IMG/VR virus record: IMGVR_UViG_2671180631_000013
Source of the DNA: a virus
Lineage: Duplodnaviria; Heunggongvirae; Uroviricota; Caudoviricetes
Length of the DNA stretch: 33,040 nt
Strand: one strand, 5' to 3'
Position numbers: made by a program. Positions 6,001-9,000 of this stretch are shown piece by piece. Positions within the stretch are counted from its first letter, which is position 1. The number at the start of each line of letters is the position of its first letter.

Positions 6001-9000
6001 TCGTGGCGTTTTGTGTCTGTGGAGAAACTAACGCATGAACAGTTTAACGGCAAATAACCGTTTGTCGCAACAGCTGGTGGTCAGCGTCGCTGAACACCTG
6101 TTGTTACGGCATGAATGCAGATTACCAAATCACCTGGCTGTAAGTAACCACAGAGAACTTTACCTGACTGTGGGGGGCGAGTTGTGCAGGAACTTAACCG
6201 CTGGTTTCGTGACGGAAGAGGACTTTATGTTCATGTTATTCGTTGGGAGCCAGAAACACAGCGCGTTATCTATCTTCGCAAAGACTACCCGCATGAGTGC
6301 TTTAGTCCTTTGTGGAAATTCAGGCGTGATTTTGTTGAGTGTGAAGGACCACCAGCACATTGATTCTGCCATTCCGGGACGTTACACTGTTCAGGCACCT
6401 TATAAAGCGGGTGCCGGGATTGGCGTCCTGGAATTGATCAAGGCGATATATGACGCGCCAGCGTCTTTTTTATCGTCCGCATTTGCTCACATCAAAGTTA
6501 TGGTGGGCTGGGCGGGGGCATCGAAAGATGCGCCGGTTTCCTTGATCACCGGTTACGCCAACCCCGTTCAGTTCACCACCAGCGAAATTGGCGTTTCCGG
6601 TGGTGGAAGTATTTCACCGATCAAGGAGGCTGCCATCATGGCTACTGTCCCAGCCCTCACTCGTCTGAATGATGAAGACTTACATAAACTCAGTTATGTA
6701 ACAACTGCACTACGTGCTCTGCGCAAGGTAACTCTTTCGGATCCGCAGGCACATCAGGTTCTGGTAGAAACCCTTCTTAACTTGCAAGCTGAACGTATTC
6801 GTCTGGCGGATAAGGCTAATTTTCATATTCACCGTCTCCTGAATATCAGCGGAGGGCATCGTCATGCTTAATCCGTTGATCCTCAATATTTGCCGTTTGC
6901 TTCAGCGTAAAAAAATATCAATTCCTACAGTTGGGCAGTGGTACACCACGCCTGCAGGGCATGTTCTACGTGTTAGCCTGGTTGACCGTGAATGCCAGAA
7001 GGTGATTTGTGAACCGCTGGGCCGTAATTACCGCGTCAGTATGCCGCTTATAGCCTTTCGCTCCGGAAAAAACATGAAGCATCTCGGAGGTGCAGCATGA
7101 GTATGGAGCTGATGGTTAAAGCGATGAAAATTCGAGTGGGTAATCCATTGCGAAAACTGGTTCTGATCAAGCTGGCTGATAATGCCAGCGATCAGGGTGA
7201 GTGCTGGCCCAGCTACCAGCATATTGCTGACCAGTGCGAAATTAGCAAACGTTCTGTGATGAATCATATTGCGGCCCTTTGTGAGTCCGGGCTGGTAAAA
7301 AAAGTCACCCGGAAAGGTGAAAAAGGTAACTCAAGTAATATCTATCTCCTTCATCTGGATGGTGCAGGAGATTCACTAGGGGGTAGTGCAAATAATTCAC
7401 TATCTGGTGCAGCAAATTCACCAGGTAGTGCAGGAGTTGCACCAGGGGGTAGTGCAGGAGATTCACCCAGAACCAGTCACTCTTTTGAACCAGTCAAAGA
7501 ACCAGTCAATGAACCAATAGCTGTTGGTGCATCAGTTGATGAGTCCGTGCGAGTTCGTTCAAACCGACCGGAATACTCTCCGGAGTTTGAGCAGGCATGG
7601 CTGGCATATCCCAAACGTGCTGGTGGCAATTCAAAATCTGCAGCCTTCAAAGCCTGGAAAGCCCGTTTGAATGAGGGAGTAAACCCCGAAACCATGCTGG
7701 AAGGTGTGAAACGCTACGCGGGATGGGTATCTGCGATGGGTAACAGCGGCACACAATTTGTGAAACAGGCTGTCACGTTCTTTGGTCCGGATCGTCATTT
7801 CGAAGAATTCTGGGAAGTTCCTGCGGTATCTGCAGCCAGACGCGAGGACCCGTACTTCAAAGCCAGTTACGACAACGTGGACTACAGCCAGATCCCGGCA
7901 GGATTCAGGGGGTGATCATGAGTCTTTTGAATGAAGTTCAGAAATTCATTGAAGCCCATCCGGGGTGTACTTCCGGAGACATTGCGGATGCTTTTGCAGG
8001 TTACTCACGGCAGCGCGTTCTGCAGTCAGCAAGCAAGTTACGTCAGAGTGGGCGTGTGGCTCACCGTTATGAAGGAGATACACGCAGACATTTCCCACGC
8101 CTGACTGAGAGAGCGCAGGAGCCGGAACCACAACCAGTTCGTGAAACCAGACCTGTGCGCAATTTCTATGTCGGCACTAACGATCCCCGGGTGATTTTGT
8201 GCCTGACCCGCCAGGCGGAAGAACTGGAGTCCAGGGGCTTATACCGTCGTGCTGCAACGGTGTGGATGGCGGCATTCCGTGAAAGCCACTCCCAGCCAGA
8301 ACGAAACAATTTTCTGGCGCGTCGTGAGCGGTGCTTACGGAAAAGCAGCAAGCGCGCTGCATCGGGTGAAGAGTGGTATCTGTCAGGGAATTACGTGGGG
8401 GCTTAATGAGTAATAAATATTGCCAGGCGCTGGTGGAGCTGCGGAACAAACCAGCCCATGAACTGAAGGAAGTGGGCGATCAGTGGCGCACGCCGGATAA
8501 CATTTTCTGGGGAATTAACACCCTGTTTGGCCCGTTTGTTCTGGATCTGTTCACTGATGGTGATAACGCCAAATGTGCCGCTTATTACACTGCGGAAGAC
8601 AACGCGCTGGCGCATGACTGGTCTGAACGTCTTGCGGAGCTTAAAGGTGCTGCCTTTGGTAATCCCCCGTACAGCCGCGCCAGTCAGCATGAAGGGCAAT
8701 ACATCACCGGCATGCGTTACATCATGAAGCATGCCAGTGCCATGCGTGATAAGGGCGGACGCTATGTTTTCCTGATCAAAGCTGCCACCAGCGAAGTGTG
8801 GTGGCCGGAAGATGCAGATCATATTGCTTTTATTCGCGGGCGTATTGGTTTTGAACTGCCTGCCTGGTTTATCCCGAAGGACGAGAAGCAGGTGCCGACA
8901 GGCGCTTTCTTCGCTGGTGCTATTGCTGTTTTCGACAAGACCTGGAAGGGACCGGCAATCAGCTACATCGGGCGCGATGAACTTGAGGCATGTGGTGAGG

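Follow-up and report, generated by a model that had tools for sequence, protein, structure and literature searches.

What is encoded in the interval of about 1 kb that separates the cII-like gene from the replication gene of a lambdoid prophage? We addressed this question in a 33,040-nucleotide (nt) stretch of a virus of the class Caudoviricetes (IMG/VR record IMGVR_UViG_2671180631_000013), hereafter the window, whose immunity and replication region is 99% identical to that of Shigella phage SfV and has frequent close relatives among E. coli prophages. An initial annotation of this interval, which we measure at ~1.06 kb, had described its coding as ambiguous and offered several small genes, an overlapping gene pair or a frameshifted gene as explanations. 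We propose that the insert is probably an antisense-RNA immunity cassette of the P4/P1/Gifsy-1 type, inserted between ymfL and the replication gene in the early rightward operon of a lambdoid prophage of the SfV/e14 type. Its central feature is a pair of RNA genes, one isrK/seqA-like and one C4/CI-like, within 6395-6583, both of which the initial annotation had missed. Systems of this kind are already known, and genome annotation mostly labels them wrongly as an 'Ash family protein'; what is particular here is the location in a lambdoid replication region, an orphan protein of 77 amino acids (aa) as cargo and a long frame that overprints a DUF4222 gene.

The isrK-like RNA (6395-6471) matches Rfam RF01394 with 64.2 bits against a gathering score of 50 and has an intrinsic terminator, a hairpin followed by a T-run, at its 3' end (6452-6471); a sub-threshold match to the c4-a1b1 family (RF03163) was also obtained at 6382-6434. 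The C4 RNA (6496-6583) matches RF01695 with 82.3 bits against a gathering score of 45 and covers the full-length model (positions 1-87). Its fold, a long closing stem with two internal hairpins, is paired in 100% of cells across 14 distinct homolog sequences, with double changes at 12 of the 27 pairs, and the observed values were matched in 0 of 500 shuffles; the same structure slid along the sequence as a control pairs only 33-48%. Compensatory changes can be followed by eye, for example in GCAUC-GAAA-GAUGC, CCAAC-UUCG-GUUGG and CCGAC-UUCG-GUCGG. Upstream of isrK we note a putative promoter comprising TTGATT (6360-6365), a 17-nt spacer and TACACT (6383-6388), with a 6-nt gap to the isrK 5' end at 6395 and with the DUF4222 stop codon included in its -35 hexamer. 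This stretch is nearly invariant across all variants, homology of phage ASU11 (which has no DUF4222 gene) to the window begins at 6359, and the Gifsy-1 counterpart has TTGACA-17 nt-TATATT at the same position relative to isrK; by analogy, 6360-6388 may be the counterpart of Gifsy-1 PisrK and P4 PLE. The RNA produced by read-through would be unusually stable (z = -5.45), and its minimum-energy fold pairs the C4 loop region with the Shine-Dalgarno (SD) region of the gene that follows at ATG 6638. A leader frame beginning at an AUG in the C4 5' stem (6500) runs stop-free and in phase into this ATG, which would yield a product of 123 aa (6500-6871). Of 39 distinct variants, 38 keep this leader open and in phase, and the 123-aa form of leader plus nested gene is the one modelled by phrog_4908.

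Two segments of C4 are complementary to sites on either side of it. The loop segment b' (CCTTGATC / CCUUGAUC, 6540-6547) is complementary to b1 within isrK (GATCAAGG, 6436-6443) and to b2 downstream (GATCAAGGAGG / GAUCAAGGAGG, 6619-6629), and the single-stranded segment a' (ACGCCAA, 6555-6561) to a1 within isrK (TTGGCGT, 6420-6426) and to a2 downstream (TTGGCGT, 6588-6594). The near-consensus SD AAGGAGG (6623-6629), which lies 8 nt 5' of ATG 6638 and had correctly been pointed out in the initial annotation, is part of b2, the sequence complementary to the antisense RNA loop. Pairing runs in the window are 9 nt (b':b1), 11 nt (b':b2) and 7 nt (both a':a1 and a':a2). Across variants, cognate b':b2 runs are 6-12 nt long with a mean of 10.3, as opposed to a mean of 5.5 for non-cognate combinations across types, and a':a2 runs of cognate pairs measure 7 nt. 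The 39 distinct variants fall into at least 10 specificity types (examples being GAUCAAGG, GCAUACGG, GUUAUCGG, GUCAACGG and UCACCAAAG), and in each of them a1/b1, a'/b' and a2/b2 change together. The SfV reference (L001, NC_003444) carries a G-to-C change in a2, reading AAATTGCCG, against AAATTGGCG in the window and all other loci; this cuts the a':a2 run from 7 nt to 3 nt, and could be either a sequencing error or an immunity-relevant mutation.

The features of the locus are the following (ORF, open reading frame; all on the plus strand):

5475-6038 (+): YmfL / CII(CP76)-family gene (Pfam PF06892, E 8.5e-15; NCBIfam NF041471, YmfL equivalog, 169 bits)
6035-6871 (+): long frame-2 ORF of 278 codons, SfV orf37, taken from the ORF listing and joined to ymfL by an ATGA junction
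6039-6183 (+): region A, without amino-acid constraint and crossed by the open frame
6184-6363 (+): DUF4222 gene, 59 aa, frame 1, GTG start (Pfam PF13973; phrog_1343; SD-like GGGGGG at 6172-6177)
6360-6388 (+): putative internal promoter, proposed from its position (-35 TTGATT, -10 TACACT)
6395-6471 (+): isrK / P4-seqA-like small RNA (RF01394)
6496-6583 (+): C4 / P4-CI-type antisense RNA (RF01695)
6500-6637 (+): leader frame from the AUG in the C4 5' stem, counterpart of Gifsy-1 orf45
6588-6629 (+): predicted C4 target sites a2 (6588-6594) and b2 (6619-6629), from complementarity and co-variation
6638-6871 (+): nested 77-aa gene, located where P4 has kil and where Gifsy-1 and Shiga toxin (Stx) phages have Rha/antirepressor genes
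6864-7100 (+): 78-aa gene, SfV orf38 (phrog_1153, E 5e-42), preceded by GGAGGG at 6851-6856
7097-7915 (+): replication initiator, SfV orf39, HTH_36 / DnaD_N-like (Pfam matches; SfV annotation)

From ymfL to the replication gene there is a start/stop overlap at each gene junction (6035, 6864 and 7097): the ymfL TGA (6036-6038) overlaps ATG 6035 of the long ORF (GCATGAAC), the start of the 78-aa gene overlaps the stop of the 77-aa gene by 8 nt, and the replication gene begins in an ATGA overlap with the 78-aa gene stop. The reading frames listed in the initial annotation (the ATGA-coupled 278-codon ORF, the internal ATG, the GTG-started 59-codon ORF with its GGGGGG 6 nt upstream and the SD-preceded 78-aa gene) are all present at the positions given there, and only its label for the upstream gene, YdaT-like, had to be replaced, as this gene belongs to the YmfL / CII-CP76 family.

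Which of these frames evolve as protein was assessed by counting variable sites at codon positions 1/2/3 in a collection of 97 homologous loci, with ymfL as a control (55/29/116). Codon-periodicity scoring of this kind had been suggested in the initial annotation, and within the 1-kb insert it reveals constraint only in the DUF4222, 77-aa and 78-aa genes, which gives codon-phase backing to the idea of several small genes. The DUF4222 region gives 13/9/36 in its own frame and 9/36/13 when read in the long-ORF frame, the unique part of the 77-aa gene 5/1/11, and the conserved part of the 78-aa gene (6933-7100) 9/9/34. Frame 2 has no codon periodicity over 6035-6183 (14/16/18) or over the isrK-C4 stretch at 6364-6637 (59/54/50). 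Pairwise counts are concordant with these pooled values: relative to locus L004 the DUF4222 gene has 29 third-position changes and 8 and 6 at the other positions, the isrK-C4 stretch gives 30/34/29 relative to locus L002 and counts such as 16/19/21 for others, and region A gives 12/12/8 relative to Salmonella relatives, which in addition have a 6-nt deletion. Region A can be aligned to ymfM of e14 only with indels of 14, 5, 20 and 1 nt and looks like a decayed homolog of the ymfM N-terminal part; an Rfam search of 6039-6183 at a permissive threshold returned no RNA family. Comparison of homologous prophages, likewise suggested in the initial annotation, yields no single conserved 278-aa protein frame and instead a constrained DUF4222 gene in another frame. 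The ORF at 6035-6871 is not one 278-aa protein, and protein constraint is found only in its last 77 codons. As for an overlapping gene pair, one member stands, the DUF4222 gene inside the long ORF, whereas the long ORF itself is without amino-acid constraint.

The long frame is nevertheless kept open. Read in phase with ATG 6638, the 250 nt upstream contain zero stops in 38 of the 39 distinct variants (among them P4), whereas the other two frames accumulate 69 and 148; this pattern and the DUF4222 domain match place the coding ambiguity of the insert beyond chance. Counted as distinct sites, stops occur at 2 positions in the long-ORF frame (both in phage ArgO145) and at 15 and 16 in the others, for which a rough binomial calculation of our own gives P ~2e-4. 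Of 87 loci, 86 have the long ORF uninterrupted; two independent 3-nt indels that lie between C4 and ATG 6638 keep the frame; and the ORF start is found on or beside the stop codon of any of four unrelated preceding genes, namely ymfL, a Roi-like gene, a 382-codon ORF and P4 orf88 (junction ACGCATGATG in P4, ACGCATGAAC in the window). This stop-avoidance test led us to revise our first interpretation, that the long ORF is simply spurious. The frame is probably kept for being translated, not for its sequence, and by analogy with P4 its translation would suppress Rho-dependent termination; we read the long ORF here as a likely counterpart of P4 eta. In phage ArgO145 (L006, 1381-1761) the frame 5' of the Rha ATG is broken by one stop located 8 codons 5' of the ATG and a second one farther 5', and both the C4 fold and the target complementarity are intact, indicating that the RNA cassette can persist without the long ORF.

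By analogy with the known systems, the cassette could work as follows. In the lysogen, an internal constitutive promoter at ~6360-6388 would make IsrK, and read-through followed by processing would also give C4. This RNA would pair with a2/b2 and mask the SD at 6623-6629, blocking translation of the nested gene, whereupon Rho would end the untranslated transcripts before the replication genes; in trans, C4 would act likewise on incoming phages of the same specificity. Upon induction, pR transcripts would be translated unbroken from ymfL through the long ORF, and ribosomes travelling over isrK and C4 would prevent both the terminator and the antisense pairing from acting, such that the replication genes would be switched on despite RNA immunity. 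Only the openness of the frame would matter for this, not its amino-acid sequence. The first downstream gene gated by the cassette would be orf39 (7097-7915).

The gene in the other frame of the long ORF, the GTG-started 59-codon ORF, matches DUF4222 (PF13973) with E 9.5e-14 and 51.1 bits against a cut-off of 27, over profile positions 4-51 of 53, and phrog_1343 with E 1e-36. Stand-alone homologs of 57-70 aa, down to 64% identity, are found in E. coli, Salmonella, Citrobacter and Kosakonia, and the Prokaryotic Genome Annotation Pipeline (PGAP) annotates the window-type gene. In the literature we found only one characterised DUF4222 protein, the prophage-encoded RgdR, which regulates type III secretion in enterohaemorrhagic E. 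coli. Both the DUF4222 protein and the 78-aa protein may have ordinary accessory or regulatory roles as small proteins, each translated from its own start site. In e14 (L014, ~2502-2681) ymfM, to which the first part of the long frame is homologous, is overlapped by an intact DUF4222 gene that lacks annotation and starts at a TTG preceded by AAGGAG; intact, unannotated DUF4222 genes with good SDs also overlap a ymfM-like ORF in another frame at 1150-1329 of both L096 and L097, the starts at the three loci being TTG or ATG, and in vB_EcoS-733R5 an antisense ORF is annotated in place of DUF4222. Comparing e14 with a Klebsiella phage, the ymfM N-terminal part is protein-constrained (14/16/29), and the overlap is constrained only in the DUF4222 frame (6/3/25). 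The published basis for ymfM as SfiC, an SOS-inducible division inhibitor, consists of whole-ORF clones, library fragments and deletions; the constructs that we checked all span both frames, and the inhibitory product is therefore not assigned to one frame.

Two explanations would make a single protein of the long ORF or of part of it. It might be, either as 278 aa or as a 181-aa version from GTG 6326, a genuine Ash-domain regulator of the Bro network, with the RNA matches being secondary. Pfam PF10554 (Phage_ASH) indeed matches residues 117-210 with 67.8 bits against a gathering score of 26, the frame is open nearly throughout, the SfV record annotates the ORF as orf37, a RefSeq example annotated by PGAP has the DUF4222 gene, a 181-aa 'ash family protein' from GTG 6326 and zero RNA genes, and the literature treats Ash as a protein domain of Rha proteins with unassigned function (PMC8951638; PMC10111431). 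However, the matched residues correspond to nt 6383-6664, which is the isrK, C4 and SD region; this stretch shows RNA-type rather than protein-type constraint and its conservation tracks RNA pairs, third-position bias is absent over 6364-6637 and strong in the neighbouring genes, residues vary freely where RNA stems co-vary (as in ASKDA versus PTSVG), what look like conserved 'motifs' (MVGWAG, NPVQFTT and EAAIMAT) fall on the C4 stem strands and the SD, and codons 1-110 are overlapped by a constrained gene of another frame. PF10554 also matches the obsolete 'cI protein' ORF of P4, which lies over the C4-family match corresponding to CI RNA, and not epsilon (L012, minus strand, 8168-8584 versus 7888-8175). 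We consider a genuine Ash protein very unlikely. The P4 epsilon protein belongs to PF25738, not PF10554, and the survey of P4-like satellites that used PF10554 as its epsilon marker (PMC8628076) probably tracked the immunity RNA locus instead. The query region is matched in 1580 of 5426 complete E. coli genomes, and its annotation is wrong or incomplete in many genomes; the value of the present analysis is mainly corrective for annotation, with one testable lead on ymfM. The other such explanation, already raised in the initial annotation, is a frameshift: either a -1 programmed event at G GGG GGC (6172-6178) joining the frame-2 start to DUF4222, or a decayed, frameshifted single gene. The G-run is in the right register just 5' of the opening of the DUF4222 frame, frame 1 is open from 6148, and the protein-constrained N-terminal part of e14 ymfM ends at the DUF4222 start. 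Against this, Salmonella relatives have a frame-1 TAA between the G-run and the GTG, with the frame opening at the start codon in L007 and L008, and the G-run is replaced in L004 (AGGT-ATG), e14 (AAGGAG-TTG) and the Klebsiella phage (GGAGA-ATG). The start codon is GTG, ATG or TTG at one aligned position across relatives with an SD before each, and stand-alone homologs of the 59-aa protein are the rule. Because the TAA lies just 5' of the DUF4222 start in the Salmonella relatives, a fusion at GGGGGG is ruled out, and a frameshifted gene in any form is exceedingly improbable.

A more serious competitor, though in our view still unlikely, holds that only independent elements are present (the DUF4222 gene, the two RNAs, and the 77-aa and 78-aa genes) and that the long frame is open by composition and ancestry, being untranslated 5' of 6638 (or 6500). 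It would account for the missing amino-acid constraint 5' of 6638, for ArgO145, which has a Rha gene without the frame, and for Gifsy-1, which functions without a long ORF. It is opposed by stop avoidance that is frame-specific over ~10 diverged types and P4, by the frame-keeping 3-nt indels, by the start/stop overlaps with four unrelated upstream genes, and by P4 eta, for which translation and a requirement in read-through have been reported (PMC10111431). Several observations do weigh against the immunity cassette as we propose it, and some of them favour this competitor. The variants are related by descent, which makes the stop-avoidance statistics rough, and the +1 frame across DUF4222 is stop-free also in phages without the cassette, such that openness over this gene may be intrinsic to the sequence or inherited from ymfM. 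A promoter scan with a cut-off of 9 of 12 consensus bases called no promoter, the 6360-6388 candidate scoring 8 of 12, and SD accessibility with or without C4 in cis differs modestly (mean P(unpaired) 0.21 versus 0.36). The 77-aa protein gave no BLASTP alignment to P4 Kil at E <= 100 and no similarity to antirepressors in a large protein search. RNA processing, Rho-dependent termination and the immunity phenotype are all inferred, and the P4 model used here follows a secondary summary (PMC10111431). On balance we retain the antisense-RNA immunity cassette. A bolder and rather doubtful combination is that the long frame is an ORF selected only for translation (a 'ribosome track' with an anti-polarity or anti-immunity role, overprinting the conserved DUF4222 gene and both RNA genes) and, jointly, that SfiC of e14 is really the DUF4222 protein inside ymfM. 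If the former were true, the SfV, e14 and Stx lambdoid groups would carry a second, RNA-based immunity layer of many specificities over their replication genes; if the latter were, the DUF4222 gene of the window would be a division inhibitor or regulator. Recognition of the cassette changes how regulatory regions of the Stx-phage and SfV type are to be read, and suggests a control point before antirepressor or replication genes that is RNA-based and has multiple specificities. It also gives a concrete example of a frame that stays open across other genes in the absence of sequence constraint, and raises the testable question of which frame of e14 ymfM inhibits cell division.

The nested position is a site of cargo exchange. 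In the window it holds the 77-aa gene, whose product found only 8 near-identical sequences in the large protein search and only self-families in Pfam, PHROGs and NCBIfam. Its AlphaFold2 model is a helical hairpin of two long helices (predicted local distance difference test score, pLDDT, 83.7) for which Foldseek returned no PDB match at E <= 0.001; the protein is thus an orphan, predicted to be a helical hairpin. Most relatives have, in place of 6663-6932, a Rha-domain gene with its start at ATG 6638, and phage ArgO145 has Rha annotated from the equivalent ATG. By count, the cargo is 77 aa in 33 loci, Rha-type (~181-185 aa) in ~47 and 120 aa in 2, and Kil of 65 aa in P4. The exchange also swaps the N-terminus of the 78-aa gene, with breakpoints at ~6662 and 6933. 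Mosaic breakpoints among relatives coincide with module edges: 6185 with that of DUF4222, 6359 with that of the RNA cassette (putative promoter included), and ~6662 with a point shortly after the start of the nested gene. The relatives of the 78-aa protein form a family of hypothetical proteins from enterobacterial prophages, and the protein may be a distant DUF4222 relative, on the strength of weak similarities (a phrog cross-hit with E 0.008, BLASTP E 0.014, and hhalign E 0.0013 with a probability of 18%).

Further downstream, imperfect tandem repeats with periods of 21-24 and of 12 occur at 7382-7516 within the replication-protein gene and look like an origin/iteron array within an O-like gene. 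Among the genes that follow are one for a PerC-family regulator (Pfam PF06069, 7912-8406) and an ORF at 9056-9382 that by position corresponds to the LexA-family regulator annotated in relatives.

Among known elements, e14 of E. coli K-12, in its ymfL-ymfM-oweE region, has the ymfK/ymfT/ymfL immunity genes in common with the window, as well as an ATGA-coupled 'MNSLT...' ORF that overlaps a DUF4222 gene just before the replication gene. It differs in having no isrK/C4 cassette, no 77-aa gene and no 78-aa gene, and in the N-terminal part of ymfM, which is protein-constrained in e14 and unconstrained in its window counterpart, region A. The C4 RNA of the window and c4 of P1/P7 are one RNA family (RF01695), and the complementarity of a'/b' to a1b1 and a2b2 that we computed has its equivalent in immI, where the c4 loops reportedly pair with a1b1/a2b2 repeats on either side, with icd-ant downstream. 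One c4 target site in P1/P7 covers the ribosome-binding site of the first downstream gene, and several heteroimmune specificities exist. The downstream genes in the window are not icd/ant, however, and the cassette lies in a lambdoid pR operon. Gifsy-1 shares with the window the succession of isrK with its terminator, a C4-family RNA (STnc1160 in Gifsy-1) and a gene, and the AUG in the C4 5' stem that starts the 45-codon orf45 is conserved in the window at 6500. Translation of the downstream gene in Gifsy-1 depends on upstream RNA conformation, IsrK acting in trans to switch on translation of orf45, which is coupled to the antirepressor gene anrP (Hershko-Shalev et al., 2016, PMC4825925). Whereas orf45 ends in ATGA on the anrP start, the leader frame of the window runs into ATG 6638 without a stop; Gifsy-1 has no long upstream ORF, is located after antQ rather than in a replication region and carries an antirepressor and isrJ, in contrast to the window with its 77-aa orphan and no isrJ found by Rfam.

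A close parallel is offered by P4, in which immunity relies on CI RNA with seqA and seqC as target sites. P4 and the window both have the isrK-like and C4 Rfam families, identically ordered and oriented (corresponding in P4 to seqA and CI, respectively), a conserved nested-gene start 'GGAGGCTGCCATCATGGCTAC', a long ORF in phase with the nested gene that starts on the stop of the preceding gene (ACGCATGA in both) 5' of the RNA genes, replication genes downstream, and PF10554 matches to both ORFs. Counted in P4, the nested ORF has 65 codons, which matches the size of Kil. A constitutive promoter is located inside eta, and its transcripts are terminated via CI/seqA interactions, yielding CI RNA; read-through gives Kil, a truncated product, full-length Eta comes only from the upstream promoter and is coupled to the preceding gene, and Eta translation prevents termination and is needed for read-through (PMC10111431). 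The two systems differ in their loop specificities, in the host element (a lambdoid prophage here, a satellite in P4), in the upstream partner (ymfL here, an alpA homolog in P4), in the nested product (77 aa and unrelated to the 65-aa Kil), and in the long ORF, which in the window also overprints a DUF4222 gene.

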